Origin: an uncultured virus (IMG/VR IMGVR_UViG_3300030106_003254) | Lineage: Duplodnaviria; Heunggongvirae; Uroviricota; Caudoviricetes | Length of the DNA: 64,000 nt | IMG/VR virus record: IMGVR_UViG_3300030106_003254 | Reading direction: 5' to 3' (one strand) | Shown: one piece after another, positions 7,958 through 31,516 of the stretch | Layout of the letters: each line of letters begins with the position of its first letter | How positions within the stretch are numbered: the first letter of the stretch is position 1 | Position numbers and translations under genes: made by a program | The notes under the pieces: generated by a model | What the model saw: the letters and a program-made list of their open reading frames with translations, nothing else | Told to the model about the DNA's origin: nothing | Databases searched by the model: none

Positions 7958-9685
7958 TTATTTCGTATATCTTTCCATTTGTTCTACATCAGTACCTAGA
8001 GGTAGTGACTTACACCACTCCGGCGGCTCAGACATAATTCTATCTATGTCCTCTGCGGCCTCTTTTGCATTATCCAAGTCAGCTTCAATCACCACCTCAT
8101 CGTGGACTCTCAAAACAACCCTGTGACCAGCTTTTCGGAGGGCAAGTACTCTATCCATAAAAACATCTCTGGCAAATGCCTGAGTAGCATTTTCAATCAA
8201 GGTTCCTTTCCAAAACCTCAATCTTTGCATCTTACCTCCTCTAGGTATTTCAGCAGATAGCCCTTTTTCAAGTTCTACCCGCCGATATTTCATGGTTCTT
8301 CCTGAAGGGAGTCCAATTTCATAGTCCCCTCCGTTCGATTCACGCATATCTCTTTCCATAGAAGCCCAAAGTTTTACCAACTCAGGCATCTTAGATCTGA
8401 AAGTACGTACCATTGAAGTGGCATCATCGTACTCAACACCAGTTATGAGTGAAAATTTGTTAGCAGACATCGCAAACTGACATCCTAGACACATCTGTTT
8501 CATTGTGTGCCTTAATGTTGGGTTTTGGATTTTGAGTGGTGCTGAGTCTTTATACATACCAAAAGCTCTAGCCTGCGCCTCATACCAGTCCATTCCCTGC
8601 CTCGCAAGTTCCAACATGTCGTCTTCACCCGCTAACCAAGCCGCACAACGTGCCTCAATTTGCGCTAGATCAGAAACTAGAAGGGTTTTACCCGCTCCAG
8701 CCCTCACACAAGACCTTAAATCGACCCCATACATACCACCTCTAGGTAAATTCTGCATATTAAACCCAGAATCACCACTATCTCTGCCCGTATGAGCTCC
8801 AAAATACTTCATTCCGTATGGGAGCCTGCCATTTTCTATCCTACCTCCCATTGTTTCAAACTTCTTTAGTAGAGAGTTAGCTCCCCTAAGATCGTGAGTC
8901 GCCTCAAGAACTTTACCCTCTTCCGGGTTATCTTTGATCCATTCAATAACTTCTGGATCAGTCTTTGCCATAGAAGCTGGAGGCTCTTTCCCCTGAGAGC
9001 GGCACCATGCAGACCATTCTTTTGGAGAAAGAGCTCCTGCCTGTGCTTCAGTCCACGGCAATACTCTAATAGAATCGCAAATCTTTTGAGAGAGTATTCC
9101 TATAGACTTATGAATTTCTTCTTCGTCTATAGGAACCCCATCCCAACACATCCTTGTGGTCTCTCTGGAGAGGTCTCGCTCCCACTCAGGCCACGATGAT
9201 TCATTCTCTTTCCATAGGCAAGCACACCCCTTAGCATCAAACAGGGCATATTTAGCGAGCTCTATCTTCTCTTCTTTATCTAAATCCTCAAACTGCCTAC
9301 CTTTCATGTTATCCCTGACTTCTTTAGACATGACCAAGCCAAGAGATTCTTTTAAGGATTCCTTTAACGATCTCGGATATCCTGAGTAAGCAGCCATATC
9401 TGCTGTGCAGTGCCACTCTTTAAATTTAGTTGGGGGAATGACGCCAGTGCTTATTAAATGATCATGCACTGGTTCGTCAAACCCCCTATTGTGTGAGAGA
9501 GCTATAACCCCCTCAAGTTTGTCCCAAGGAGCGTCCTTGGGATGCCCTACCCACGCAAAGTTGTCATCACAATATATTGATACCATGTAAGCATCGAAAT
9601 TGTCATGTTTTAAATAGTTCTGAAGACCGTCTGTAATTGTGCAGTCTTTATCATAGTATGTTTCGTAATCAATACCTGCGTACAT
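7958..9685 (-). CDS. polA: DNA polymerase family A with 3'-5' exonuclease
   Basis: Exo I IDYET, Exo II HNRGFD, Exo III YALFD; HTGR; motif A SDLAQIEAR, motif B RHTMKQMCLG, motif C VHDE. Confidence 0.93.
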   Translation of the reverse strand: MYAGIDYETYYDKDCTITDGLQNYLKHDNFDAYMVSIYCDDNFAWVGHPKDAPWDKLEGVIALSHNRGFDEPVHDHLISTGVIPPTKFKEWHCTADMAAYSGYPRSLKESLKESLGLVMSKEVRDNMKGRQFEDLDKEEKIELAKYALFDAKGCACLWKENESSWPEWERDLSRETTRMCWDGVPIDEEEIHKSIGILSQKICDSIRVLPWTEAQAGALSPKEWSAWCRSQGKEPPASMAKTDPEVIEWIKDNPEEGKVLEATHDLRGANSLLKKFETMGGRIENGRLPYGMKYFGAHTGRDSGDSGFNMQNLPRGGMYGVDLRSCVRAGAGKTLLVSDLAQIEARCAAWLAGEDDMLELARQGMDWYEAQARAFGMYKDSAPLKIQNPTLRHTMKQMCLGCQFAMSANKFSLITGVEYDDATSMVRTFRSKMPELVKLWASMERDMRESNGGDYEIGLPSGRTMKYRRVELEKGLSAEIPRGGKMQRLRFWKGTLIENATQAFARDVFMDRVLALRKAGHRVVLRVHDEVVIEADLDNAKEAAEDIDRIMSEPPEWCKSLPLGTDVEQMERYTK

Positions 9686-9744
9686 GGGTTAGCTACTTTA
9701 TCACGTTTCTAGATTTTTTAGATTATTAAATATTAATGTAAATC

Positions 9745-9826
9745 GACACTGGATGTTCAATGTAGGGAGAAATCCAAAGAAAAACTCCCTTGTCCGAGGC
9801 TCTCCCCCGACTCTATTTCCAGTGCC
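9745..9826 (-). ncRNA. structured RNA unit B (three-way junction), unknown family
   Basis: P1 GGCACTGGA/TCCAGTGTC, P2 GTC-GGGG/CCTC-G-GAC, P3 GGGAG/CTCCC; homologous to unit A with compensatory changes. Confidence 0.7.
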
Positions 9827-9839
9827 ATTTGGTTTTGGT

Positions 9840-9911
9840 GAACTAGATGATCACTCTAGGGAACCTAACTTCCCCTTGTCCAAGGATCTCCCTTGACTCT
9901 ACTTCTAGTTC
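9840..9911 (-). ncRNA. structured RNA unit A (three-way junction), unknown family
   Basis: P1 GAACTAGA/TCTAGTTC, P2 GTC-AAGG/CCTT-G-GAC, P3 GGGGAA/TTCCCT; same linkers as unit B. Confidence 0.7.
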
Positions 9912-9912
9912 G

Positions 9913-9971
9913 GGAGTGTTAAAAAACCCAAGGGAACAACAACGAAGCACCTTGGTAGAAAGAAACACTCC
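9913..9971 (-). other. stem-loop preceding the RNA units; possible terminator or processing signal
   Basis: GGAGTGTT/AACACTCC outer stem, CCAAGG/CCTTGG inner stem followed by GTTTTTT. Confidence 0.5.
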
Positions 9972-9980
9972 AAATTAATA

Positions 9981-10778
9981 TTACTTTATACTCTCGATAA
10001 ACTGGAGTTCATCTTCATCAAGTCTTCCTGATCTTTTCATAACAGGAGCAAACCAAGATACATCACCCTCGGTTCTTAACTTAGATGTGAAAGACCACGC
10101 TGTAGTCCAAACTCCACTACCTTTAGCAAAAGCTGCGTAAGTAGCTATCTCTTTAGCTGTTGGTTTATACGCTGACTTAGATGCAGTGTAAATAGCTAAA
10201 GCATAATAGTTGCCGTCGTTCTCGTAAGGGAACAACTCCAAAGCGTCTTCTTCAAGTCCTTCAGGAGCTTGAATCAACATTGTTATGTGAGCAATAGGTC
10301 TACAAAAGTTTGGAGAACCCCACTCAAGTGAGTAACCTGCGGTGTGAACCTCTTCTTCAGTGTTGAACACTTTAGGAAGCTCCTCAGAACCCCAAGCAAC
10401 ATCCTCTTGATACTGCTTCACCATATTTGTTACAATAACCCTCAAAGGTTTATCTTTAAGAGTTAGGGTAGCTTCTTTGTTTAGAACAATAGCTCCCGGA
10501 GTAAAACCTTCATCAACTAGTGCTGATGTCTTAGCAACAATGTTAATCCTAGGAAGGTTTATATCAGAAGCGTCAAACTCCCCAGCTAAACCAGCCTCGT
10601 TTAATTGTTGATCTGTTAGGGTCAACTCCCCCTTGTCAGAATCCTGTACTATAATAGCACCCTGATCCTCTTCAGTTACTGTAACCTCTACAACTTCCTC
10701 CTCTTTTTTAGAAGCTGCTTTCTTTGCCGGGCTCTTTTTACCCTTTTTTTCCATTTCTGCGAATGATGTTTTTGCCAT
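9981..10778 (-). CDS. putative single-stranded DNA-binding protein
   Basis: DASDINLPRINIV motif typical of phage SSB-like proteins; lies between nuclease and polymerase genes. Confidence 0.55.
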   Translation of the reverse strand: MAKTSFAEMEKKGKKSPAKKAASKKEEEVVEVTVTEEDQGAIIVQDSDKGELTLTDQQLNEAGLAGEFDASDINLPRINIVAKTSALVDEGFTPGAIVLNKEATLTLKDKPLRVIVTNMVKQYQEDVAWGSEELPKVFNTEEEVHTAGYSLEWGSPNFCRPIAHITMLIQAPEGLEEDALELFPYENDGNYYALAIYTASKSAYKPTAKEIATYAAFAKGSGVWTTAWSFTSKLRTEGDVSWFAPVMKRSGRLDEDELQFIESIK

Positions 10779-10805
10779 TTTATTTATATTTATTTTTATT
10801 ATTTA

Positions 10806-13274
10806 CTATTTTATTTCGGATAAGAACTGAGAATCTTTAGCGGTTTCAATAGCACCAAGTCTATGGAGCTCTGACATCACTTCTGATACCCTTTCTTTTT
10901 TCTTACCACGAGGGGTCTTATCAGACACCAGTTTCTCCAGTTTGCCAACTGGAAATTTTTCAATTCCTTCTAGGAAATCTTCTACGTCTACCATATCCTT
11001 AACAGCCCCGAAAGCGGCTAGTGCAGATGTAATAGATCTTCTACCTCTTCTTTCTTTAATTTCAAATCCCGGTATTTGTATACCATCCTCCATAGCCATC
11101 TTTTTAGCAGCATACTCAACTCCAGCAGCCCATTTACGTACTATAGGGACTGCCTTTAACATATCTGCAATAACTTTAGGGTCGGTGCAATCACTACCAT
11201 GAATGTCCTCAGGCATATCTAAAAAGTCTTTAGCTGAAGGAGCGTATTTCTTAGCGGTCTCTAAAGATAGTTTAGCTAAAGAAGGACAACGACCAGCATT
11301 TTTACAGTAGTTACATATCTTTAACTGAGGAATGAGTTCATTAGGGTCTGCGTCTGAAAAACACGCCCTAACTTTCTTGGCCCTCTTAATTACATTGGAT
11401 ATAGCGTGAACCACTTCATCCATATCTTTCCGTTCAAAAGTGTGGAACAATATTTCATCCCTGCGACAAGCTATAAAGTAAAAGTGTATTGTGTCTAACT
11501 GCGGAAACCTTTGAAAGGCACCTAAAGCATACGCCTTTGCTTGCCAGTTATCTTGAGGCTCATCAACAGCCATTTGACCAGTCTTATAATCAATTTGAAC
11601 TGCTTCAGTTCCGTTAACTGTAAGTCGATCACAAGTACCAAACGTCTCCTCACCTGTAAGCTTCATTGTAAGCCTAATCTCTTTATAGTCATCTAACTCA
11701 CCAAAGTTCTCTGAGTAGCCGTGGTTATCGAATATAGCCTCTTCAGCGTTTCTACAACCTTGAGCTAGGGAAGACTCATAGTCGTTTAAATTAGACCAAT
11801 CTCCGGTCTCTAACGCCTCATGTATCCTAGTCCCCATCTCTGCGGCAGGGTTAGTACCACTTTCACCTTCGTAACCGGGACAATGGGCGGACATTTTAAT
11901 CGAAGAAGGGCCATATTCAGCGTGAGCTTGCTCTTCATCGACGACAGTTTGCTTTTTATCTTCCATATTAGTAGTATTATATACGTCATTTTGCGAATGA
12001 AGCAACTTTAAATTTTCAATTTTTGTCATCATTGAATTAACTATGCTAGTTTCTATAGTTTTTTCAGCTACTAACACCCTCTGAACACTTTCAGACATTC
12101 CCCCCAAACGATCCACACGTCCTAAACATTGATGAAAGTCTTTAGCATTATACGTAGGACTTATTAGAGCTAATCTGGGAGACTCTCCTGTGGTATCATG
12201 TAAACTAACCCCAACACCACCCGCAGCAGTATTACAGAGGATTACTTTTACTTTACCAGTTTGGAAAGCTTTTATAGCAGAATCCCTCACATCTTTATTC
12301 TGGCCTCCCTGCACAAAAGTGTGGTTTTCTTTAAGCCTGCGGGACAAAGCGTCTATTGAATCAGTAAAGTTTAAGAAAACAGCTACAGCATTTCCAGCTT
12401 CCCTAGCCTCGGTAACCATATCAGCAATGTCAGGAACCTTCAAAAGCTCTATTTCCTGCCTTAACCGTAGTATTTTAGTTAAAACTATAGGTTCATCCCC
12501 ATCACCTTCTTTTCTAGCCTCTAGTTTTTCTATTTCAGGCTCTAATTCCTTAAAAAGGCTGTTTATTTTAGCTTTTTTGCCAAACCTAATGGGGTCTGTA
12601 ACTATCCTAGTCTTTTGAAAGTGTGTGCCTAAATCTTCTCTCGTAAGCTTATGCCCACGTTCTGGGTATATAAGTTTATTAAGTTCTTTTAATTTCCCCC
12701 TATTTCTTTCTGGAAAGTTTAAAGAGTTCCACCGATCAAACTCACAACCCCAATTTTGAGCCCAAGCCCAGAAGTTACTTAGACTATGTAAACTCAACGT
12801 AAACCCTAGAGCTCTCATCTCTCTAGGGTCTTCAGCAGCAGTAGCTGATAGCAGTAAAATCTTAAAACCCTGCTTTTTAGCTGCAATAAGCATATTAGCG
12901 TTCAATGTACGAGTCCCTTTAGCTTTGTGACACTCGTCAAACACCAATAAAACCTCTTTTGGGTCCAAATTTACCCATTTAAACGCTTTTTTACCTGCTT
13001 TTTTGATCCAATTAGTGTTCCCAGCCCTTAATTTCTCCCAATTATACACATTATAGTCACTTACACCTTGCTTGTCTAAAGTGTCTTCCCAAGAAGCTAT
13101 TACCGTTTTCGGGCAAACCACGAACGGGGTAAGAGCCATGGTTTTAGCAATTTCCACCGCTTTGAGCGTTTTTCCCGTGCCCGTGTCGGACGAATCGAGA
13201 GCGGCTCCGTGTTTTTTGAGGGCTTCAACGAGGGCTTTATGTGATTTTTTCTGAGCTGGATAGAGTGTTAGCAC
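10806..13274 (-). CDS. SNF2-like SF2 helicase fused to Cas4-like PD-(D/E)XK nuclease (DUF2800-like)
   Basis: DTGTGKT, DECH, SAT, QCLGRVDR helicase motifs; HAEYGPSS..CPG, GTRIHE, GTCD, IDYKTG, CNYCKNAGRCP nuclease/Fe-S motifs. Confidence 0.85.
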   Translation of the reverse strand: MLTLYPAQKKSHKALVEALKKHGAALDSSDTGTGKTLKAVEIAKTMALTPFVVCPKTVIASWEDTLDKQGVSDYNVYNWEKLRAGNTNWIKKAGKKAFKWVNLDPKEVLLVFDECHKAKGTRTLNANMLIAAKKQGFKILLLSATAAEDPREMRALGFTLSLHSLSNFWAWAQNWGCEFDRWNSLNFPERNRGKLKELNKLIYPERGHKLTREDLGTHFQKTRIVTDPIRFGKKAKINSLFKELEPEIEKLEARKEGDGDEPIVLTKILRLRQEIELLKVPDIADMVTEAREAGNAVAVFLNFTDSIDALSRRLKENHTFVQGGQNKDVRDSAIKAFQTGKVKVILCNTAAGGVGVSLHDTTGESPRLALISPTYNAKDFHQCLGRVDRLGGMSESVQRVLVAEKTIETSIVNSMMTKIENLKLLHSQNDVYNTTNMEDKKQTVVDEEQAHAEYGPSSIKMSAHCPGYEGESGTNPAAEMGTRIHEALETGDWSNLNDYESSLAQGCRNAEEAIFDNHGYSENFGELDDYKEIRLTMKLTGEETFGTCDRLTVNGTEAVQIDYKTGQMAVDEPQDNWQAKAYALGAFQRFPQLDTIHFYFIACRRDEILFHTFERKDMDEVVHAISNVIKRAKKVRACFSDADPNELIPQLKICNYCKNAGRCPSLAKLSLETAKKYAPSAKDFLDMPEDIHGSDCTDPKVIADMLKAVPIVRKWAAGVEYAAKKMAMEDGIQIPGFEIKERRGRRSITSALAAFGAVKDMVDVEDFLEGIEKFPVGKLEKLVSDKTPRGKKKERVSEVMSELHRLGAIETAKDSQFLSEIK
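11976..12005 (-). promoter_or_regulatory. internal sigma70-like promoter before the nuclease domain
   Basis: TTGCTT-18 bp-TATAAT, in-frame ATG at 11966. Confidence 0.55.
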
Positions 13275-14000: not shown

Positions 14001-15752
14001 TTGCGTGTAAAGTTAAATGTGCCTATTAAAAAATACGGGTATCAATTTCCAATGGGAACCAATGAAGTTACTATGGAGCTTCATGCGTTTTTAAATGACC
14101 GGGGCCCCGAAAACGGGGGTTTAGGTCAGTTTGAACATTTTAGAAATGCAGCAGACCTTTTGTGGAATGACCCTCAAAAACCAACGTCTAGAAATTTTAT
14201 ATGGTCTCCTTGGGCAGAAGACATGTTGTACGAAGCTTGTGACAACCAGTATCTTTCTATAGCAGGATGTGCTTCTTCTGGAAAGTCAGACACTATGGCT
14301 TTGTGGGGGATAATTAATTATTTAGCAGATCCCTACAATACTTTGGTTATAGTAACTTCAACTACATTACGAGAAGCTCGAAGACGTATTTGGAAGTCTA
14401 TAACAGAGCTTTGGGCTGCGGTACACGGTCTACCGGGTAAAATGGTTCCTTCTTTAGGACAAATTAAAGGTTTATCGAAAGATGGGGGTTTTTGGGAATC
14501 TACAGGCATAGTCCTAGTACCAGCAGAAAAACGAAAAGAAAAAGAAGCTATAGGTAAACTTGTAGGTATTAAACAAAAGCGATTAATCTTAATTGCAGAC
14601 GAGCTCCCAGAACTACCAGAGTCTTTAGTTCACGCAGCTTATACAAACTTATCTACCAACCCACACTTTCAAATGATTGGTTTAGGTAACCCAAATAGTC
14701 ATTTCGATGCTTTTGGAGTGTTTAGTAAACCTAAGTTAGGGTGGGGTTCTGTTACCGAGCAGGATAATGAGTGGGAAACTTCTAGAGGTAAATGTATTAG
14801 ATTTAATGCTGAAGAAAACCCCAATGTATTAGCGGGTAAGAATATATACCCATGGATGCCTGACAGAGAAACTGTAGAGGCTGCAAAAAGAGATTACGGA
14901 GCCGACTCTCTTTTGTACTACAGGATGTATAAAGGGTTTTGGTGCCCCGACGGTATAGATAGTGGTGTTTATTCCGAAGCCGATTTAGTTAGAGGGGTTG
15001 CGTCGATGCCAGCTAAGTTTGATAAAACTCCGGTTAAAGTAGCCGCTATAGACCCATCATTCACAAACGGAGGAGATAGATCCATAGTATTCTTTGGTTC
15101 TTTAGGTGAACAAGATGGCGTACAAGTATTACAATTCGATTCCTACGAGGCTTTAACCGAAAACATTAATGACAGAAAAACACCTCGTTCTGTTCAAATA
15201 GCTAGAAAATTTAAAGATATTTGCGTTAAAAACGGTGTATTACCTGAAAACGCAGCTTGTGACGCTACAGGAGCTGGAGGACCTTTCCACGATATAGTTA
15301 GTGTAGAGTGGAGTGATAGAGTGTTACCTGTTAACTTTGCAGGTAAAGCTTCTGATAGACCTGTATCAGCTACAGATAAAACTCCCGGTAATGACAGATA
15401 TGCTAATAGAATGTCAGAGATATGGTACCAAGGACAAGAACTTTTAAGGTCTCAACAACTTAGAGGGATACCCACCGATTTAGCTAGGGAGATGGTAGGA
15501 CGTAAATATGAAACAAGCGGATCTAATTTAAAAATTAAAGTAGAGTCTAAAATAGATTATAAAAGCCGCATAGGTAAATCACCCGACATAGCAGATGCAG
15601 CCTTTATATTAGTAGACTTATGTAGGTCTAGGCACGGTTTTATGGGTGGAGAAAGGTTTGTTGTAAACAAAGATAGACAAAAAACTTGGTCAGACAAAAT
15701 GAGATCTTTAGACATAACTGCCGCTTCTAGTAGAACTCTCCTTGATACATAG
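14001..15752 (+). CDS. terL: terminase large subunit
   Basis: Walker A GCASSGKS, Walker B LIADE, LGNP, nuclease AAIDPS and SPDIADA; start codon uncertain. Confidence 0.9.
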   Translation: MRVKLNVPIKKYGYQFPMGTNEVTMELHAFLNDRGPENGGLGQFEHFRNAADLLWNDPQKPTSRNFIWSPWAEDMLYEACDNQYLSIAGCASSGKSDTMALWGIINYLADPYNTLVIVTSTTLREARRRIWKSITELWAAVHGLPGKMVPSLGQIKGLSKDGGFWESTGIVLVPAEKRKEKEAIGKLVGIKQKRLILIADELPELPESLVHAAYTNLSTNPHFQMIGLGNPNSHFDAFGVFSKPKLGWGSVTEQDNEWETSRGKCIRFNAEENPNVLAGKNIYPWMPDRETVEAAKRDYGADSLLYYRMYKGFWCPDGIDSGVYSEADLVRGVASMPAKFDKTPVKVAAIDPSFTNGGDRSIVFFGSLGEQDGVQVLQFDSYEALTENINDRKTPRSVQIARKFKDICVKNGVLPENAACDATGAGGPFHDIVSVEWSDRVLPVNFAGKASDRPVSATDKTPGNDRYANRMSEIWYQGQELLRSQQLRGIPTDLAREMVGRKYETSGSNLKIKVESKIDYKSRIGKSPDIADAAFILVDLCRSRHGFMGGERFVVNKDRQKTWSDKMRSLDITAASSRTLLDT

Positions 15753-21608: not shown

Positions 21609-22634
21609 ATGGCTAATGATTCAATTACTATTAATCAATCAGTTAATTCTGTTACAGCCACATCTCAAAGCAGTTCGGCCTCTGTAACAGATACCGAGAA
21701 TACTGTAACTGCATCAGGCACTAGCCCTACGGCAAGTGCAACACAAACCATATCAACCGCATCAGCTACTTCTAGTCGGTTTGCTCTAGGAGCTTCTTTA
21801 AGTTCCTTGTCCGACATGAATGTGAACACAGCAGATGCTTTAGCTTTACTATCAGCAGCAGAAGTTCAATTACTAGATGGAGCTATAGTTACTACCACTC
21901 AGTTAAATTTTCTTTCTGGAGTATCTTCTAGTTTACAAGACCAGTTAAATCTTAAAGCTCCTTTAGCTAGCCCTACCTTTACAGGAAATCCTATAGCCCC
22001 CACCCAATCTGCTGGAAATAATAGTACTCGAATAGCTACCACAGCTTATGTAGATAATGCTGTTTCTTTAGAAAACACCATAGAAGAATTAGATGACACA
22101 TCTATAACCTCTGTAGCTAATAATGAACTTCTTCAATATAATAGTTCTAGTTCCAAGTGGGTTAATAGAACTTTTGCAGAAGCTGGAGTAGCTCCCGTAG
22201 CTACCCCCACCTTTACTGGTCAAATTACACATTCAGGAGTTATACTCACAGCAGGAACAAGCATAGACCAAGTTAAAACTTCTGTAGTTTCTATGACAGT
22301 TACTCCAACTTTTCAAGACACTAACATAACTCAATCAGGAGCTATGCCTACCGGAACTTATGTTATGTTATTGCATGTAAATGATGCAGCAGGGGGAGGT
22401 TCAGCAGAAGCTTACTACTCAGCTATTATAAATATTTATGGCGGTACGACTAGTGCGGATGATTTTTCTAGTGAGGTAGACTTACATAGATCTGGAGGAT
22501 CAGATAATGGTAAAATGATTTTTATAAGAACTCGTTCTGAGGCTGATACAAACAATGTGCGTATTGAGATGGCAGCTAATTTTACGGCTTCAAGTGCAAG
22601 TAATTATACATTTAAATTTAGAAGACTTATTTAA
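21609..22634 (+). CDS. short tail-fibre-like protein
   Basis: KAPLASPTFTG..APT...IATTAYV fibre repeat; S/T-rich; shares a module with the next gene. Confidence 0.7.
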   Translation: MANDSITINQSVNSVTATSQSSSASVTDTENTVTASGTSPTASATQTISTASATSSRFALGASLSSLSDMNVNTADALALLSAAEVQLLDGAIVTTTQLNFLSGVSSSLQDQLNLKAPLASPTFTGNPIAPTQSAGNNSTRIATTAYVDNAVSLENTIEELDDTSITSVANNELLQYNSSSSKWVNRTFAEAGVAPVATPTFTGQITHSGVILTAGTSIDQVKTSVVSMTVTPTFQDTNITQSGAMPTGTYVMLLHVNDAAGGGSAEAYYSAIINIYGGTTSADDFSSEVDLHRSGGSDNGKMIFIRTRSEADTNNVRIEMAANFTASSASNYTFKFRRLI

Positions 22635-25600
22635 TGGCTTCAGAAGGAAAATATTTTAAAGGAGACATCCACACATTAGGGAACGTAGGTATAGGTAACC
22701 TATCTGCTTCATATAAACTTGATGTTACTGGAGCGGCCAACATTTCAGGTAATTTAAGTGTTGGGGGTATTCCCACTGCACCTACTGCATCAGCAGCTAC
22801 TAACAACACACAGTTAGCTACAACGCAGTACGTCACCACAGCGATAACTAATCTCATAGACTCCAGCCCCGACACGCTCAACACACTCAATGAGATAGCA
22901 GCAGCATTGAATGACGATGCGAACTTCGCTGGAACTATAACTACATCGATAGCGACCAAGCTTCCTTTAGCGGGTGGCACGATGACTGGCAACTTAAATC
23001 TTGGAGACAACATTAAGTTGCAGCTAGGACAATCCAATGATCTTCAGATCTACCACGATGGATCAAATAGTATTATAAAAGATAATGGAACTGGCGGTTT
23101 GTTTTTATTAGCTGATGTTGCTACGTACATTCAATCACCTACTGGAGAAAGTAAGGCGAAGTTTACTAAAGACGGCAGTGTTGAACTTTTCTACAACAAC
23201 TCAAAGAAATTTGAGACTGTCTCTGGGGGAGTTGATATTACAGGAAACATTACAGTTAGCGGAACTGGAACCCTAACTGGAGTTCTAAAACTTCCTGATG
23301 GAGCCGTAGGTGCGCCCGCTTTGTCATTCGCAAATGATGCTGATTCTGGCATCTATTGGGATAATGCCAACAAAGCCATAAGATTTTCAATCGATGGAGT
23401 TCAAAGGGGATACTTTAGTACAGCAGGAATATTATCTGTTGCGAATGTTTATACTGGAAATACGGGTCAATTCCGAAACTATGGTGGAACATGGAAAGCC
23501 ACAACTGGATTAACAGGTAATGGTTTTGAGTTCTCCAACTCAGTAGATGGCACAGCAATGACGTTATCGTCTGCTGGAGTTTTAAATGTAACTGGTAACA
23601 TTACATTAGGAGGAACCGTAGATGGAAGGGACGTAGCTGCTGATGGATCAAAGCTAGATGGTATTGATGCTGGAGCTAAAGACGATCAAACCGCTGCGGA
23701 AATCCTAACGGAACTCAAGACCGTTGATGGAACTGGTTCTGGATTAGACGCAGATACTTTAGATGGTAGTCATGCTTCAACATTTGCTGCTGCCTCAGAT
23801 TTAAGTACGCACGTTGGTGCTACTAATCCTCATAATATTACAGCGAGTACAGTAAGTTTAGGGAACGTAACGAACGAGTCCAAAGCGACTATGTTCACAA
23901 GTGCAGCTCTCACAGGCACACCAACCGCTCCTACAGCCAACGCAGGTACTAATACCACTCAGATAGCAACTACAGCGTTTGTAACTTCTGCGGTAGCTTT
24001 AGAGAACACTCTAGCTGAGATGGACGACGTTACGTTTGCATCTTTAGCTGACAATGAATTACTACAATACAATTCTTCTAATAGTAAATGGGAGAATAAA
24101 ACGATATCAGAAGTAGGGTTAGCTTTAGCCTCAGATTTAAGTACGCACGTTGGTGCTACTAACCCACATAATATCACTTTATCTGGTCTTGGAGGACTCC
24201 CTCTCGCAGGAGGGACGATGACTGGTCTTGTTTCTTTAACAGGAGGAGGATCTACTTCGCCTGTTGGAGTTAATGGATTGCATTTGATGTTTGATAGCAG
24301 TGGAGGTACTGCTCATATTAATGCACAGCAAAATGGGACAAGTAATAGACACTTATCATTCAAGGCTGCTTCTTATAGTTTTAATAGTGGTAATGCGACG
24401 TTTGCTGGTATTGTAACAATACCCGACGGTGCTGCCAATGCTCCAAGTCTTAGAACAGCTTCACATAACTCAGGTTTATTTACAACTTCAGGAACATTAC
24501 AGTTTTCCGTTGATGGGGTAGCAAGGGCTTATATAAACAGTGCAGGAATTACCTCAAATGGTAATCTCTATACATCGGCTACAGGACAGTTTAGGAATTT
24601 TAGTGGAACGTGGTCGGCAACAACTGGCACTGCTAATAAAGGGTGGGAGTTCTTTAATACAGATAATAGCAACACTATTCGTGCAGCTAAACTTTCTTCT
24701 ACAGGAACCCTAGAGCTTAATGGAGGTACTACTGCCACAAAGATTGAGGCATACGAGACTTATTCAGATGATAATAATTATGAGAGATCTTTCTTTAAGC
24801 ATGCTTCTAGCTTCTTGGAGATAGGAACTGAGGCATTAGGTACAGGCACAGCAAGTGGGTTAAAACTCAAGACAGGAGGGAATGATGTTATAACAATAGG
24901 GACTGATCAAAAAGTAAAAGTTGGGGGTGGAACAAATACCCCATCTTTGGGAGGCGGAACAGTCTTTAGAGTAGATATGACTCAAGGTGCTGGCAATTAT
25001 GCGAGCATCGCTATCTTGGGAGGCAACACAGGAAGATCTAGTTTATTCTTTGGGGATCTTCACGCAGAGCAAAGAGGTGCTTTGGATTACAGGCATGGAG
25101 ACGACTCTCTGTCTATAAGCACAGCAGCAGGAGAAAGGATGCGTATTCTTTCTGATGGTAAGGTAGGTATAGGTACTGTTTCTCCAAACTACTTACTCGA
25201 TGTCGAAGGGTCGGGAGCGTCCATGCGTGTACGAAATACAGCAACCGATGCTGTTACGCAAATTGTGATGAGGTCAGGAGGATCATCAGGGGAGAATCAA
25301 ATTAGATTTGGCGATGATGATGATGCGAATAGGGGAATGATTCGCTACAGGCACAATGGCGATAGTCTAGCCTTTGATGTAGCTGATGCAGAGAGGATGC
25401 GTATTGACTCATCTGGAAGACTCGGTATCGGAACAACTACGATCCCACATTTGCTTTCAGTCAAAGGAACAATTTCAAGACTCAATAGTTCTGGAATACA
25501 GGTTATAAACCTTGGAACAACAAGTGATCATGGTCAGTTAACAATTAATAATTCAGGAGGCACAACGAAAGTTGCCCTCAATAGTAGTGGAGATGACAGT

Positions 25601-28600
25601 TATATCAATGCAGGTGACTTCGGTATTGGTACTACAAGCCCTTCCTCTAAGTTGCACGTATTGTCAGGTGTTGTTTCAGGTTATTCGGAGGATACCTATG
25701 CTGATATAATAGTAGAAGATTCAGATGCTCGAATACAAGTTGTTTCAGATAATGGAGGAACTAATGGTTCTTCAATAATATTAACTAATGTTGATTCTGG
25801 AACTCATAGTAATTGGGCGATAGGACAAACAACTACAGGTAATTCAAACAAGTTACACATTGGGCATAATACTAGTTCTGGTGGTGATACTAGTAATTTT
25901 TCAACTACACAAGATTTAGTTATTACCACAGATGGTAAGGTCGGTATTGGAACCACAAGCCCTGCTGAATTACTCCATGTGCAGGGAAGCAATGCAACTA
26001 TTAATGTTCGAGAAAGCGGTGCTGCTACTGTTAAAATGCGAGCAGGATCTGTTGGTAGAATAGGAACATATTCAGATAATGATTTCTCTATTGTTAGCAA
26101 TAGCACGGATCAAGTTCGTATTAAAAGTGACGGCAACGTAGGCATAGGGGTTACAAACCCAAGTAAAAAGCTACATATTGATGGTGACATAAAGCTTAAA
26201 AACTCAGGTAAGCTATTCTTATGGAATGACAATGATAATAATTATTTAGACTATCAAAATTGGATAGCTAGTACAGGCAATGCTCAACTTATAAGAAATA
26301 CGGGAGCAGGTGGTATTAAGTTAAAAAGTACATCTTTAGAAGTTGTTGTTACTACTGGTTTGGGTATAGGAACCAGTACTCCACTAGCTCCTCTCCATGT
26401 GCAGGGAACAGCACTAACAGGATACGCCAGTGGAGATGTAAATGCTGACACCATGATGGTGATTGAGAATGATGATAATGCTAGATTGGCTATTGTAGCA
26501 GGTTCATTATCTGATGTTCTTTTCGGTGATGCTGCGGATCAAGATGTAGGAAGAATTAGATACAACCACTCATCCGACAGTATGGCTTTCTTTACTGCTG
26601 GAGCTGAGTGCATGAGGATTAAAGATAGTGGTGAGGTTGGCATCGGAACCACAAGCCCGACAAGTGAACTTCATGTTCATTCTGGGGCTTTCTCTAGTGG
26701 AGATGCTGAGATAAGAAATGATGCTAGAGTTAACAGGAATTACAAGTTAGCACTAGGTACAACGACCAAGTACATTGGTACAGTCCAAATGAATGGCAAT
26801 GGTGACTCTTCAGGTTTCCATGTGCGGATATATGATGGGCATAGTAAAGTTTGGAGAGAGGTAAATGTAGTTGTACAAAATTCAGGTGGCACAAATTACC
26901 CGAAGGTAACTGTCGAGGGAGGTGGAGATGATGTAAATATTAATGTAGAGTTTGCTTATGTAAATAGATCAGGAGCAGCTCAAAAGACAGACTTCTATTT
27001 AGTTCCAACATCAAACAAAGCTTATACACAATTAATTTTCGTTGATGGATTTATTGAAAGAGACACAGGTCATAGCAGTACAAGCTCGACTAATATTAAC
27101 TTAGATACTGCGATTGGGATATATAAAGCAGCTACGGATGACTCAAGCAAAATCGGAATAGGAACTACTGACCCAACAGAAAAGCTCGAAGTTATTGGAG
27201 ACATTTTAATAAATGGTGGTCCTGCTGGAGGGAGAAGTTTACAATTAAAAAGAACTGGGGCAACCAATCCTTGGAAGCTTGTACAAGGACACACACAGAC
27301 AGATTATTTTGAAATATTAGAAGGTTCGGATACTAGATTTTTAATTAAGAACGGAGGTAACGTAGGCATTGGAACTAATGCCCCTGCACATAAACTAGAT
27401 GTTTCTGGTTCTGCAAGGTTATTAGCTACTGCACCTACACTGACTCTACAAGATTCAGATGAATCTAACGTATTTGGGCAGATTATCGAAAGTTCTGGAG
27501 TATTAACTGTACGTTCAAGAGATGGGAGTAATCACGGTGAGATAAGGTTTGAACGAGGTAACGGGTCGGCAGTTCTTGAAACTGCACGGTTTGATTCTAG
27601 TGGAAACACAACACTTTCTGGAAACCTCACAGTACAGGGAGACATCTCTACTACAGGCACATTCACTATAATAGACACAGATGTCAGCACTACTGAACAG
27701 CTTGTAGTAACGAATGATGGAACTGGCCCTGCTGTTGTTGTTAATCAAAAAGGAGTACAGCCCGTAGTTGATTTCCAAGATGACAGTACTTCTGTTTTCT
27801 ACATAAAGAACGGAGGTAATGTTGGTATTGGTAATGGTATAACAAATCCTCTAAATAGACTGCATGTTGAAACTAGCGACTCAACAATTGCTAGGTTTAG
27901 ATCAACAACTAATAAGGCAGCTATTTTAATACAGGATGATGATACTGACGGATACTTTAGTGCTGAATCTGGCAGAGTCTCAATGGGATTCAATTCAGGG
28001 TTACATGCAGATAATATCAATATTCTTGAATCGGGTAGTAATTATTATGTAGGGATAGGAACGGTTAGTCCTGTTGGCCCATTGACTCTTGCTAATGTCA
28101 CTGGTGGTAATTGGAATGATGGATTGATAATAGATGATCCTACAGGGTGGGCAGCGACTGTATATAAGAGGAGTAACAGTCCTAAAATGTTTACAGGTCT
28201 TTATACTGGTAACGACAACTACATCTGGATGTCAACAGGGTATAGTAACTCTGGAACTAGTATAACCGCACCAAGAGCGGATGCGGTCCTGATGGCAAGA
28301 CCTAGCACTGATGATCTACAGATATATTTAGAAACGCATTTTGGAAATAGGATAGGTGTCGGGACTACAAGCCCTGCTGCTATATTAGATATAGTAGATT
28401 CTCAAACACAATCAGGTTCGGCAGGAAGAGCTACAATCCAAACAACCGCCACAACAACCACTACTAGTACGCAAAGTAGCGGAATGTATGCAATACAAAA
28501 TTACTTTAACCTAACGGGTACAGGCGGTAGTTTTCAGAATTCAGCTCATCAACAGGTGATGACAACAGTTAGTTCTACTGGAACAGTAACTGGGTTAAAA

Positions 28601-31516
28601 AATCATATAAGTAGAGTTCACACTTCAGGCAGTGGACAAATAAATAATGTATCTCATTATAATATCCATACAGAATTAGATGGAAACGGTACTATCAGTA
28701 ATTGGATGGGATATGCTGTTGCCGACGGCACTTTAGCCACATTTACAAATTCAGGCCATACAATAACTAATACTTATGGTTTGTATATAGGGGATATAAC
28801 TTCAGGCACTCAAACCAATACCCCTTATGGAGTTTATCAGGCGAGTACTGATATGAGAAACTATTTTGGAGGTAATGTTGGTATAGGAGTTACGTCCCCA
28901 CCTGCGAGGCTAACAGTTCGTGTAGATGGTAATGCAGATACTGATCAGTTAAGAGTTGAGAATTCATCTGGTAGATTGTTCTCAGTAGATAATGAAGGTG
29001 ATGTAAAAGCTCACGGAAGTATTTTCTTACAAGACAACGGCAAGCTTATAGCGACAAGAAAGCTTATTGCAAGAGATGCAAATGGATTACTTCTTGCAGA
29101 AGATAGTGCGAGTACAGGTATTGCTATAAGTGATGCTGGAAACACTACAGTTCAAGGAGTCTTAACAGCCTCCAGTCATGCAGATTTTAATGGCAATGCT
29201 ACGTTTATTAGTGAGAGTAAATTATTTAAGGATGGTACAATTAATTCTACTAATGATGTAACTAGCGTTGTTGCTGGAAACGATACAGTATTATTCTCAA
29301 ATCCTGTACCTAGAACCCATCATGATTTATTAGCATTCAATTCTAATGTTACTCAAGAAACACATGACGGAACTTCTTGGAGTAGTTCAAGTCTACATAC
29401 AGAACTTTTTGACAACAAAGAAGACAATGCAATCACTGCGATTTCATCAAGTCAAAGTGGGGTAAGATGGACTGTTACTAATTTTGCTTACACAGGGGCA
29501 ACTCATGTACAAATTAATAACACATATTCTAGTGGTTCAGGGGGTGATTATCAGGTTACTATAGAGTCTTCATCTGATGGAACTAACTGGACACAAAGAC
29601 ATCAATCTACAGTAAGTATCGGAGCTATAGCAAGGTTCTTTAGAGTCCCATATTTAGGTGGTGATTCTTATGGCAGAATTACAATATATAGATCTTCAGG
29701 TACACGAAATATAAATTTGGTAAATGTAAGATGGTCAACTAATAGAGCAGGTGATCAAGGTCAGGGCAGAGAATATGAGCGTCCTTATGATTGGAACTAT
29801 CTTAAATCTGTAAAAGTCCCTCATTACCTACATGTTGGAAATGATTTATCGACAACCATGTCATCAAGCAATGCAAAACGCTTGGTAGTAGGTGATGGAT
29901 ATGGTGCAGAGGGGATCACGATATATTCAGGTCATGACAGTGGAGGTTATTTATATTTTGCTGATGGTACAGCAGGGGATGCTAGTTACAGGGGTTCAGT
30001 TCAGTATTCGCATAGCACAAATGCTATGTCATTCCATACTGCTGGCACTGCTACTAGGATGTTTATCAATAGTACAGGTGGAATAGGACTAGGGACTTCT
30101 TCAATAAATACTGGCATTGGCTTACAGGTAGCTAATGGTAGTCTTTATGTAACTAATGGCACTGCTTATGTTAAGCATCTTGAGGCACAGTATTTTGGCA
30201 ACGGGACAGAGTTAAAGTTATCCGCTGGTCAAAGTGCAGATCTCAAATTGATGCACTACAATACTGTAGATCTTATAATAAAATCTGATGGTAAAGTAGG
30301 CATCAACGACACAGCACCTCAAGGAAAGTTACAAATAGATGCAGGAGGTGATGTAAATGCTATTCACTTGGTTAACAGTGGGCAAAATTCTTCTAATTTT
30401 GCTACTAGACCAATATCAATAATTTTCGGTGATGAGCAAAAAGGTGCAAGCGCAAGGCATCAAGCAAGCATAAATTGTGTTCGTGAAGCATGGTCAAGTA
30501 CACCTGCTGCGCTGACATTTAAAACAGCTACTGGAGTTAATACAGCGACTGAAAGGATGCGTATTACTTCTGGTGGTAATGTAGGTATAGACACGACCGC
30601 TCCTACTTGCAAGCTACAAGTTGATGAGTACACAGTAGGCTCTAATGGAAATCAGGATAGTGGAATAGCTACCGCTGCGATATTTACGAATAGTGGTAGT
30701 GATGGTTTATATCTAGGTGTTAAGAATGCCAGTTACCCAAATAGGGGGTATGCCTTCAAAGTCACTAGCAATGGCGTTAACTCTGATTTCACAATTAGAG
30801 AACATGGTTTAACAGGTGACAGGTTTACGATCAAGACTGGCGGTAACGTAGGAATAGGAACCTCAGGCCCACAATCTAAATTTCATGTATCTGGTGGAGA
30901 TATTAGAATAGATAACAACCAACAGTATTTGGCAGAGACTGCTGGTGGTGGGGTGATAGGTGTTGCTAAGATGGATGGTTCAGACAACCTCTTGATCGGT
31001 GATGGCAATCTAAAGATTGATGTAACTGGCACTACGCCAAGATTGGTCATTGATTCCAGTGGTGATGTAGGCATAGGTACTACTACCCCATCAGAGAAGT
31101 TAGATGTCACAGGCATTACAAGGATCGGCAGCTCATCAGATGCGGGACACTTAATTGGTAGTAAAATTAATTATGCGATAAGTAATACTTTCTCTACAGG
31201 ACTTACAGTTACTTTGGCAAACCATAGAGCTTGTCATGTAAAAATATTTATATCAGGTGATTGGAGTAACCATAGTTCGATTGCTTATGTAGGTGAGTTC
31301 TTTATACAGAACACTGCCAATATAGGTTCGTACAATGAGCCAGGAATTATCCTAACAGAACACGATAATTTACCAAGTGATCAAATAGAATCTAAAATTG
31401 TAGACGGGACTGAGGACTCATTTGAAATTCAATTTAGAACATCATCACAAGTTAGTAACCCAATAGCAGGAAAACTTTGTTACCACGTAATGGGAGACGC
31501 ATCAGCAGTATCATAA
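22634..31516 (+). CDS. giant tail fibre protein 1 (2960 aa)
   Basis: many GNVGIGTTSP..KL.V repeats; DTLNTLNEIAAALNDD, LPLAGGTMTG, GSGLDADTLDG fibre motifs. Confidence 0.88.
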   Translation: MASEGKYFKGDIHTLGNVGIGNLSASYKLDVTGAANISGNLSVGGIPTAPTASAATNNTQLATTQYVTTAITNLIDSSPDTLNTLNEIAAALNDDANFAGTITTSIATKLPLAGGTMTGNLNLGDNIKLQLGQSNDLQIYHDGSNSIIKDNGTGGLFLLADVATYIQSPTGESKAKFTKDGSVELFYNNSKKFETVSGGVDITGNITVSGTGTLTGVLKLPDGAVGAPALSFANDADSGIYWDNANKAIRFSIDGVQRGYFSTAGILSVANVYTGNTGQFRNYGGTWKATTGLTGNGFEFSNSVDGTAMTLSSAGVLNVTGNITLGGTVDGRDVAADGSKLDGIDAGAKDDQTAAEILTELKTVDGTGSGLDADTLDGSHASTFAAASDLSTHVGATNPHNITASTVSLGNVTNESKATMFTSAALTGTPTAPTANAGTNTTQIATTAFVTSAVALENTLAEMDDVTFASLADNELLQYNSSNSKWENKTISEVGLALASDLSTHVGATNPHNITLSGLGGLPLAGGTMTGLVSLTGGGSTSPVGVNGLHLMFDSSGGTAHINAQQNGTSNRHLSFKAASYSFNSGNATFAGIVTIPDGAANAPSLRTASHNSGLFTTSGTLQFSVDGVARAYINSAGITSNGNLYTSATGQFRNFSGTWSATTGTANKGWEFFNTDNSNTIRAAKLSSTGTLELNGGTTATKIEAYETYSDDNNYERSFFKHASSFLEIGTEALGTGTASGLKLKTGGNDVITIGTDQKVKVGGGTNTPSLGGGTVFRVDMTQGAGNYASIAILGGNTGRSSLFFGDLHAEQRGALDYRHGDDSLSISTAAGERMRILSDGKVGIGTVSPNYLLDVEGSGASMRVRNTATDAVTQIVMRSGGSSGENQIRFGDDDDANRGMIRYRHNGDSLAFDVADAERMRIDSSGRLGIGTTTIPHLLSVKGTISRLNSSGIQVINLGTTSDHGQLTINNSGGTTKVALNSSGDDSYINAGDFGIGTTSPSSKLHVLSGVVSGYSEDTYADIIVEDSDARIQVVSDNGGTNGSSIILTNVDSGTHSNWAIGQTTTGNSNKLHIGHNTSSGGDTSNFSTTQDLVITTDGKVGIGTTSPAELLHVQGSNATINVRESGAATVKMRAGSVGRIGTYSDNDFSIVSNSTDQVRIKSDGNVGIGVTNPSKKLHIDGDIKLKNSGKLFLWNDNDNNYLDYQNWIASTGNAQLIRNTGAGGIKLKSTSLEVVVTTGLGIGTSTPLAPLHVQGTALTGYASGDVNADTMMVIENDDNARLAIVAGSLSDVLFGDAADQDVGRIRYNHSSDSMAFFTAGAECMRIKDSGEVGIGTTSPTSELHVHSGAFSSGDAEIRNDARVNRNYKLALGTTTKYIGTVQMNGNGDSSGFHVRIYDGHSKVWREVNVVVQNSGGTNYPKVTVEGGGDDVNINVEFAYVNRSGAAQKTDFYLVPTSNKAYTQLIFVDGFIERDTGHSSTSSTNINLDTAIGIYKAATDDSSKIGIGTTDPTEKLEVIGDILINGGPAGGRSLQLKRTGATNPWKLVQGHTQTDYFEILEGSDTRFLIKNGGNVGIGTNAPAHKLDVSGSARLLATAPTLTLQDSDESNVFGQIIESSGVLTVRSRDGSNHGEIRFERGNGSAVLETARFDSSGNTTLSGNLTVQGDISTTGTFTIIDTDVSTTEQLVVTNDGTGPAVVVNQKGVQPVVDFQDDSTSVFYIKNGGNVGIGNGITNPLNRLHVETSDSTIARFRSTTNKAAILIQDDDTDGYFSAESGRVSMGFNSGLHADNINILESGSNYYVGIGTVSPVGPLTLANVTGGNWNDGLIIDDPTGWAATVYKRSNSPKMFTGLYTGNDNYIWMSTGYSNSGTSITAPRADAVLMARPSTDDLQIYLETHFGNRIGVGTTSPAAILDIVDSQTQSGSAGRATIQTTATTTTTSTQSSGMYAIQNYFNLTGTGGSFQNSAHQQVMTTVSSTGTVTGLKNHISRVHTSGSGQINNVSHYNIHTELDGNGTISNWMGYAVADGTLATFTNSGHTITNTYGLYIGDITSGTQTNTPYGVYQASTDMRNYFGGNVGIGVTSPPARLTVRVDGNADTDQLRVENSSGRLFSVDNEGDVKAHGSIFLQDNGKLIATRKLIARDANGLLLAEDSASTGIAISDAGNTTVQGVLTASSHADFNGNATFISESKLFKDGTINSTNDVTSVVAGNDTVLFSNPVPRTHHDLLAFNSNVTQETHDGTSWSSSSLHTELFDNKEDNAITAISSSQSGVRWTVTNFAYTGATHVQINNTYSSGSGGDYQVTIESSSDGTNWTQRHQSTVSIGAIARFFRVPYLGGDSYGRITIYRSSGTRNINLVNVRWSTNRAGDQGQGREYERPYDWNYLKSVKVPHYLHVGNDLSTTMSSSNAKRLVVGDGYGAEGITIYSGHDSGGYLYFADGTAGDASYRGSVQYSHSTNAMSFHTAGTATRMFINSTGGIGLGTSSINTGIGLQVANGSLYVTNGTAYVKHLEAQYFGNGTELKLSAGQSADLKLMHYNTVDLIIKSDGKVGINDTAPQGKLQIDAGGDVNAIHLVNSGQNSSNFATRPISIIFGDEQKGASARHQASINCVREAWSSTPAALTFKTATGVNTATERMRITSGGNVGIDTTAPTCKLQVDEYTVGSNGNQDSGIATAAIFTNSGSDGLYLGVKNASYPNRGYAFKVTSNGVNSDFTIREHGLTGDRFTIKTGGNVGIGTSGPQSKFHVSGGDIRIDNNQQYLAETAGGGVIGVAKMDGSDNLLIGDGNLKIDVTGTTPRLVIDSSGDVGIGTTTPSEKLDVTGITRIGSSSDAGHLIGSKINYAISNTFSTGLTVTLANHRACHVKIFISGDWSNHSSIAYVGEFFIQNTANIGSYNEPGIILTEHDNLPSDQIESKIVDGTEDSFEIQFRTSSQVSNPIAGKLCYHVMGDASAVS
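23792..24162 (+). repeat. perfect 35-bp direct repeat (23792-23826 and 24128-24162)
   Basis: GCCTCAGATTTAAGTACGCACGTTGGTGCTACTAA twice, 336 bp apart, in frame. Confidence 0.9.

Follow-up and report, generated by a model that had tools for sequence, protein, structure and literature searches.

The window, which is the whole 64,000-nucleotide stretch of DNA analysed here and a piece of a tailed-phage genome, carries on its minus strand two neighbouring copies of a unit that almost certainly belongs to a real structured RNA family. The family is new, as no known Rfam family contains it, and in kind it is a phage small structured RNA. A preliminary description made from the sequence had proposed a small-RNA family that is missing from annotation and combines a constant scaffold with a variable loop. 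This proposal was upheld by the lack of an Rfam match, by covarying homologues in unrelated phages and by the presence of the units in metatranscriptome contigs, and the alternative set against it, a simple local duplication, was ruled out by the homologues with covariation. A near-invariant core in many unrelated phages that share no phage protein points to either a chemistry of its own or a very conserved host target. The family is at least a new phage RNA class and at best, if the respective reading is true, a new ribozyme or an RNA-based counter-defence. It is short, has more than 100 natural variants and is open to transcription, cleavage, probing and pull-down assays.

Secondary structure of the RNA family

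The consensus of the family reads P1, A(A/C)UAGA, G, P2 (six pairs with a GAGAN loop), AC, one or two purines, P3, at most four bases, NU(G/U)AACA and P1'. The junction strands J1 and J3 are A(A/C)UAGAG and NU(G/U)A(A/U)CA, respectively, with U replacing G in J3 in 18 of the 111 listed units. The analysis established a secondary structure made up of P1, the six pairs of P2 together with a G:C pair and a bulged A, and the GAGAN loop. Compensated variation was present at P1 pairs 1-5 and at all six P2 pairs, and unaided RNAalifold recovered both helices; 14 of 17 pairs had changes on both sides. Against a shuffle control that is inflated by related sequences, the covariation score was 0.756 for alignment A2 (79 distinct rows, revised register; 0.218 shuffled) and 0.797 for alignment A1 (register of the preliminary description; about 0.22 shuffled), and in neither case did any of 500 shuffles score as high. 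The slid controls of A2 reached at most 0.159.

The register of P2, fixed by divergent tandem copies found by the covariance model, is a G:C pair, a bulged A and then six pairs. The revised pairs were intact in all 79 A2 rows and the bulged base was A in 78 of them, whereas the register proposed earlier, with a bulged G, had to be given up, its two inner pairs being broken in 5 and 4 of the 79 rows. The strand was fixed by the excess of G-U pairs over A-C pairs (121 vs 26), in support of the strand call that had been made from the G-U pairs of the window.

Pairing in P1 and P2 went together. Among the 103 distinct matches listed from the metagenome scan, P1 and the 3' motif occurred in 50 of the 60 with a full inner P2 and in 6 of the 43 without it; among the 101 listed from a relaxed viral scan, P1 was formed in 75 of the 87 with P2 and in none of the 14 without it. 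Both counts were made without a pairing filter, and no pair of P1 was prescribed by the search pattern. The search patterns account in part for the invariance of J1, the loop and J3; 15 mostly model-found copies also keep all three.

The stretch bearing P3 ranged from 9 to 78 nt, the shortest having no stem, and P3 was dispensable, since it is missing in some members (L273, L290); a member of this kind is about 60 nt long. P1 pairs 1 and 2 were biased to G-C (92 and 79 of the 111 listed units). In the fold that we propose, J1 and J3 would pair up irregularly and so lengthen P1, and the P2 arm of fixed length would bend back and dock with its GNRA-like loop close to the top of P1. Such docking is consistent with the constant length of P2 and with the G-C bias at P1 pairs 1 and 2. 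The result would be a rigid core of about 55-60 nt, from which P3 would project as a free, dispensable arm.

The two units and the cassette in the window

The two minus-strand units, described earlier as 72 and 82 nt long, were present where they had been placed, and the compensatory stem substitutions quoted between them were correct. Their coordinates, with those of the neighbouring elements and genes, are listed in Table 1.

Table 1. Features of the RNA cassette and its flanking genes in the window
Feature	Position	Strand	Remarks
U1, unit 1 of the three-way-junction RNA	9840..9911	-	72 nt; covariance model 59.0 bits
U1 J1	9897..9903	-	last G pairs with C of the conserved AC
U1 P2	9880..9896	-	six pairs; GAGAN pentaloop cap at 9886-9890
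U1 conserved AC	9878..9879	-	bulged A, then C paired with last G of J1
U1 P3, variable hairpin	9858..9875	-	
U1 J3	9848..9854	-	
U2, unit 2 of the three-way-junction RNA	9745..9826	-	82 nt; covariance model 71.2 bits
U2 J1	9811..9817	-	
U2 P2	9794..9810	-	six pairs; GAGAG loop at 9800-9804
U2 conserved AC	9792..9793	-	bulged A, paired C
U2 P3, variable hairpin	9764..9790	-	U-rich loop
U2 J3	9754..9760	-	
H0, long interrupted hairpin	9913..9971	-	directly 5' of U1; folding z -2.66
Possible enclosing stem, 5' arm	9974..9982	-	predicted; overlaps upstream stop codon
Possible enclosing stem, 3' arm	9729..9737	-	predicted
Upstream gene, 265 aa	9981..10778	-	SSB by position only; Pam3_Gp34-like lead
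Downstream gene, family A DNA polymerase	7958..9685	-	PF00476, phrog_17
Extended -10-like site	9695..9703	-	putative, from sequence; 9 nt before polA start codon

The core of U2 is of the consensus type (AAUAGAG and UUGAACA), and that of U1 is slightly atypical (AGUAGAG and GUGAUCA). In close strains, the P2 stem of U2 appeared as GGGG/CCUC, GAGG/CCUC and GGGG/CCCC. The shared core pattern occurred twice in the 64 kb window compared with 0.01-0.02 occurrences expected, and none of 100 shuffles contained two matches. With the covariance model, whose training set included both, U1 and U2 were the only copies in the window. The folding z scores of U1 and U2 were -2.6 and -2.9 on the minus strand and -2.8 and -1.5 on the plus strand. 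The minimum free energy (MFE) structure of U2 was the three-way junction; that of U1 was a different structure and its centroid was without P2, so the fold of U1 rests on the covariation of the family. At this site the window and its relatives had one or two copies.

Two elements that were not in the preliminary description, H0 and a possible enclosing stem, were recognized around the units. In the relatives L177 and L269, the stems of H0 were changed and its U/G-rich loop was the same, while L372 had a different hairpin in its place. The enclosing stem, a predicted 9-bp A/U stem, could embrace H0, U1 and U2 together; L372 had a different one, and it was absent from the predicted MFE structure of L269. 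The sequence ACCA follows U1 on its 3' side, and it was found there alone and not in other members. A kink-turn, a sarcin-ricin mimic, a CsrA site and a tRNA mimic, judged by their general consensus, were considered and rejected, as the family does not conserve what they would need: a G in J3, GGA in the loop and ACCA on the 3' side.

The cassette lies within a minus-strand replication operon encoding an Arc-like repressor, a Holliday-junction resolvase, a helicase fused to a PD-(D/E)XK nuclease, the 265-aa protein, a family A polymerase and a primase; a gene resembling the terminase small subunit starts at 1290 of the window. The gene upstream of the units had been called SSB. This name came from position, for the 265-aa gene had no match in Pfam, PHROGs or NCBIfam, and the sole lead to its identity was Pam3_Gp34-like clusters. 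The putative extended -10 site before polA was kept in L269, a relative of about 78% identity, and not in L372. No sigma-70 or extended -10 site was found upstream of the cassette of the window. A Shine-Dalgarno-like word preceded just 7% of the 43 ORF starts of the window. The phage of the window probably has a Verrucomicrobiota-type host, because genes of its relatives recur on contigs that were binned in an Opitutae genome.

Three very long ORFs were also observed in the window, at 22634-31516 (2960 aa), 31518-38129 (2203 aa) and 48916-60105 (3729 aa). A homologue of the window ORF 14001-15752, L350:4319-7147 in G003, gave a weak intein-domain match below the Pfam cut-off.

Distribution and genomic position

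At least 162 distinct units, at least 111 of them non-redundant at 90%, were collected from viral contigs, metagenome contigs and GTDB genomes by a filter that required at least 5 of 6 P2 pairs and at least 3 of 4 P1 pairs and therefore favours pairing. In the GTDB genomes, 4 true members were present among 49 distinct pattern matches. The carriers were unrelated phages, mostly marine, as well as prophages and one conjugative region. Among cellular genomes, G005 carried the unit in a prophage with an integrase and G019 in a Mu-like prophage, while G003 and G004 carried it on phage-like contigs. In G002 (titled Terriglobia), it lay in a conjugative region with a relaxase and a coupling protein; G190 had a weaker match of 43.5 bits among non-phage genes. 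The placement of G005, titled Methylomirabilota, is doubtful because the sample of its phylum shares genomes with the Verrucomicrobiae sample, and it may belong to Verrucomicrobiae.

Across 16 carrier regions, no protein family was common to more than 5, and many pairs of regions shared none. BLASTP of the 564 ORFs of these regions, in partial records in which a distant partner could escape, found no phage partner protein common to the carriers. As no phage protein family is widely shared, any partner would be host-encoded. In the 407 kb record of G006, a gene like the RNA ligase RtcB (L353:14808-15917) was observed about 4.6 kb from the unit.

The nearest upstream ORF was on the strand of the unit in 78 of the 82 listed non-redundant units with enough flank, and the nearest downstream ORF in 64 of 81, the other 17 being on the opposite strand. 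Ten of the 82 overlapped an ORF called by a simple ORF caller. Many units were no more than 25 nt away from a stop or start codon, and many began within this distance of a stop codon. UUUU stood right after P1 in 26 of the 111 listed units compared with 5-7 in downstream control windows. An AUG inside P1' or ending it was seen in L146, L345, L379, L432 and L471, and in L146 and L345 the AUG within P1' is the start of the downstream resolvase gene. Promoters of the units' own were not enriched: of 46 contexts, 12 had a sigma-70 or extended -10 site in the 110 nt upstream, and 8.7 were expected from shuffles.

The neighbours (65 proteins scanned, most without a match) were varied early and replication genes, including RIIB, exonuclease VIII, a clamp loader, T7-like RNA polymerase, antirestriction, resolvase, helicase and methylase genes. 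In L101 and L103, the unit ended about 20 nt before the start of the T7-like RNA polymerase gene. Related phages carried the unit at different junctions of one operon: 3' of the 265-aa gene in the window, L269 and L372, between helicase and nuclease in G292 and G293, after the resolvase in G293 and before it in G003. The helicase and the PD-(D/E)XK nuclease, one fused ORF in the window (10806-13274), are two genes in L215 (G292) and G293, with the RNA unit between them. Units were most often single and formed arrays of 1-3 copies, with a neighbouring unit within 250 nt for 24 of the 111 listed. A three-unit array at L534:350-560 had a degenerate first copy, and a single contig (L439 and L440) had units at two sites 6.5 kb apart.

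RNA evidence from metatranscriptomes

A small share of the region 9000-10800 was present in 8 RNA or probable-RNA runs, of which four (X1, X2, X5 and X8), from three studies, were examined with the match positions not known beforehand; the counts refer to these four. All four marine runs had a contig on the cassette of H0, U1 and U2 within 9752-10031 (9809-10031, 9819-9974, 9752-9950 and 9789-9962), and only two other pieces were present across the 1.8 kb. In run X2, the depth was 26.5 on the cassette compared with 4.1 on its one coding piece. These are assembled contigs from runs that were picked by way of this stretch, and they carry no ends, strand or reliable level and may include DNA carry-over. 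The divergence between close strains was about 0-2% for the cassette and 0-3% for the genes, and the RNA signal on the cassette is therefore not an artefact of conservation.

U1 was wholly bridged by contigs of X1, X5 and X8 and the 5' half of U2 by X5, while J3 of U2 was unbridged; three of the four RNA contigs contained H0 entirely or for the most part. This pattern suggests one stable RNA spanning H0, U1 and U2. The earlier idea that the units are processed from the replication transcript thus held in part: the contigs gather on the cassette, where H0, U1 and U2 appear joined and not as separate RNAs of 70-85 nt, and contigs make neither ends nor strand visible.

Comparison with known RNAs

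No match to Rfam 15 was obtained in the window at the gathering threshold, and searches at E up to 10 in small windows and E up to 1 in 18 member loci gave chance-level matches only. ARAGORN found no tRNA or tmRNA gene in the window. When the cassette was compared by BLASTN with 50,697 annotated phage records, the best 20 of 73 rows held only short chance matches with E of 3 or worse.

The loops of the C4 antisense RNA of P1 and P7 are complementary to sites in the phage's own mRNA, and its maturation involves RNase P. C4 antisense RNA corresponds to Rfam RF01695 and is listed in PMC2864571. The family resembles it in being a small RNA that phages encode within an early operon, that has hairpins and a closing stem and that is probably cut from a longer transcript, but differs in that its conservation lies in the junction strands and its variable loop can be lost. 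The Rfam covariance models of C4 had no match in the window or the member loci. The likeness to C4 drawn in the preliminary description was not sustained, since P3 can be missing and none of 13 loops outperformed shuffled loops as an antisense sequence.

The hammerhead core has the consensus CUGANGA and GAAA, which is absent from J1 and J3 of the family. In size, three-way junction, invariant unpaired purines, variable peripheral stems and phage intergenic position, the family is like the small self-cleaving ribozymes that occur near phage genes, namely hammerhead, twister, pistol, twister sister and hatchet (PMC6765202). Unlike small self-cleaving ribozymes, it had no Rfam match and no permuted forms were found, and apparently uncut RNA extended across U1.

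The c-di-GMP-I (GEMM-I) riboswitch has a three-way junction and a six-pair GNRA-capped arm followed by AC, and needs P3 as a receptor arm. The family shares the junction, the capped arm and the AC, but it has a dispensable P3 and hence no receptor arm, no expression platform and no Rfam match.

By context, the closest known system is STAXI, a mobile-element motif of unknown function consisting of a repeated pseudoknot with UUCG loops (PMC2864571). Both are tandem structured motifs of mobile elements that lie close to genes for SSB, antirestriction and other DNA-handling functions. In contrast to STAXI, the family has a three-way junction and a GAGAN loop, is most often single, has a consensus without pseudoknot or UUCG and had no Rfam match. 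Fremin, Bhatt and Kyrpides (2023; PMC10690425) reported 8,495 unnamed IMG/VR candidate structured RNAs, which share with the family the source collection (IMG/VR intergenic regions) and the size range, and the family could be one of them. No description of the motif was found in the part of that paper covered here, and three supplementary files gave no match. At the level of listings and abstracts, mostly of non-subscription papers, no description of the motif was found in the literature.

Possible functions of the RNA

Our tentative preference, held at somewhat less than even confidence, is for a stable trans-acting RNA whose rigid core binds a conserved host factor. The unit would be transcribed together with the early or replication operon and would outlive the surrounding mRNA, in the window as one species of about 230 nt that contains H0, U1 and U2. 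It would then work in trans, as a decoy for or an inhibitor of a conserved factor of the host, which is most likely a protein, and extra tandem copies would raise the dose or avidity. Such an RNA agrees best with units that do not depend on position, occur in tandem, accumulate and have no phage protein in common among their carriers; we infer the decoy step by exclusion. The covariance model detected the RNA in 2, 2, 1 and 1 of 151 genomes in four overlapping samples, counts that include the centre genome and come from 29 scored candidates per genome, so in the genomes searched it did not emerge as a core RNA of hosts. That no host core RNA which it could mimic was found, with one or two of 151 genomes per sample, counts against the trans-acting reading.

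The units could instead be cis-acting elements at gene junctions, such as a protein-assisted terminator, an antiterminator, a nuclease barrier or a processing site, which would set the levels of neighbouring genes and leave a decay-resistant remnant as the RNA in the libraries. We consider this doubtful. Several observations speak in its favour: the strand agreement with flanking ORFs, the closeness of many units to stop or start codons, the excess of UUUU after P1, and the AUG within P1' in L146 and L345. The wedging of many units between stop and start codons, in some with the AUG in P1', and the excess of UUUU are also compatible with a cis role and count against the trans-acting reading. 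The GAGAN loop also recalls lambda boxB. In one case, L126:1440-1536 on the minus strand of a conjugative region in a genome titled Terriglobia, 7 nt of the P3 loop are complementary to the Shine-Dalgarno sequence of the next ORF. However, three quarters of the units have no U-tract, no function is common to the neighbouring genes, and a cis element needs neither tandem copies 10-15 nt apart nor an RNA signal centred on the cassette.

The conserved core may also be an autonomous active site, either of a new self-cleaving ribozyme class or of a tandem-overproduced aptamer that soaks up a host nucleotide or immune signal. Taken together, these two versions are again doubtful, and each of them is unlikely by itself. 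A ribozyme that cuts polycistronic phage transcripts would agree with the compact three-way junction, the invariant unpaired purines, the free peripheral stems and the position between phage genes; according to PMC6765202, self-cleaving ribozymes have phage genes as neighbours and may process polycistronic transcripts. The missing Rfam ribozyme match and the absent hammerhead core stand against it, and so does the failure to find circularly permuted forms, which are common among self-cleaving ribozymes though not required. In a first scan of viral contigs for the P1-closed permuted form, the one locus found was not a member, and in a second scan of 43 loci all matches whose P2 was intact proved to be tandem neighbours or ordinary units. 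The contigs bridging U1 and the 5' half of U2 add light weight against efficient self-cleavage at U1, since U1 is atypical, J3 of U2 is unbridged and the contigs may derive from DNA.

The aptamer version, which we rate slightly lower than the ribozyme, would be a riboswitch or an RNA sponge for a nucleotide or an immune second messenger, the sponge being considered because no shared expression platform was seen; it would be an RNA counterpart of phage sponge proteins. The purine-rich conserved junction strands and the six-pair GNRA-capped arm are broadly like those of GEMM-I, and the multi-copy, location-independent occurrence agrees with a sponge or another aptamer. Rfam gave no riboswitch match even when E values as high as 10 were allowed, and this argues against it, as does the dispensability of P3, the receptor arm of GEMM-I. 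So does the downstream gene class, which was inconsistent: in place of one class preceded by an expression platform, the neighbours were varied and the downstream ORF was on the opposite strand in 17 of 81 units.

An antisense RNA of the C4 type, with the P3 loop targeting translation starts, is very improbable. Some P3 loops are anti-Shine-Dalgarno-like, others being U/G-rich, and the loop of U1 has an 8-nt match ahead of the start codon of ORF 2466-2969; on the other hand, some members have no P3, and of 13 loops, taken from 10 genomes, none did better than its shuffled versions at the start regions of its own phage (best P 0.17), in a comparison confined to translation starts, with the loop of H0 trimmed to 9 nt and that of G291 left out as too short. 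A single-stranded DNA structure in replication or recombination, suggested by the frequent DNA-handling neighbours and also raised for STAXI (PMC2864571), is hardly credible, as the strand of the units follows transcription and the region is enriched in RNA libraries.

Further elements near the units

Additional structured elements were observed beside some units. Directly 5' of the unit in L002, L004, L026 and L029 lies another small element with three arms, which has a GCAA-type tetraloop and a C/U-rich, anti-Shine-Dalgarno-like loop and most often stands behind an extended -10 site. More structured non-coding stretches, with no Rfam match, occur 3' of the unit in L171 and L116, and that of L116 contains a duplicated internal-loop motif. 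In L498, a stem 5' of the unit closes on the same 3' junction word with a different interior, which is possibly a related or degenerate element.
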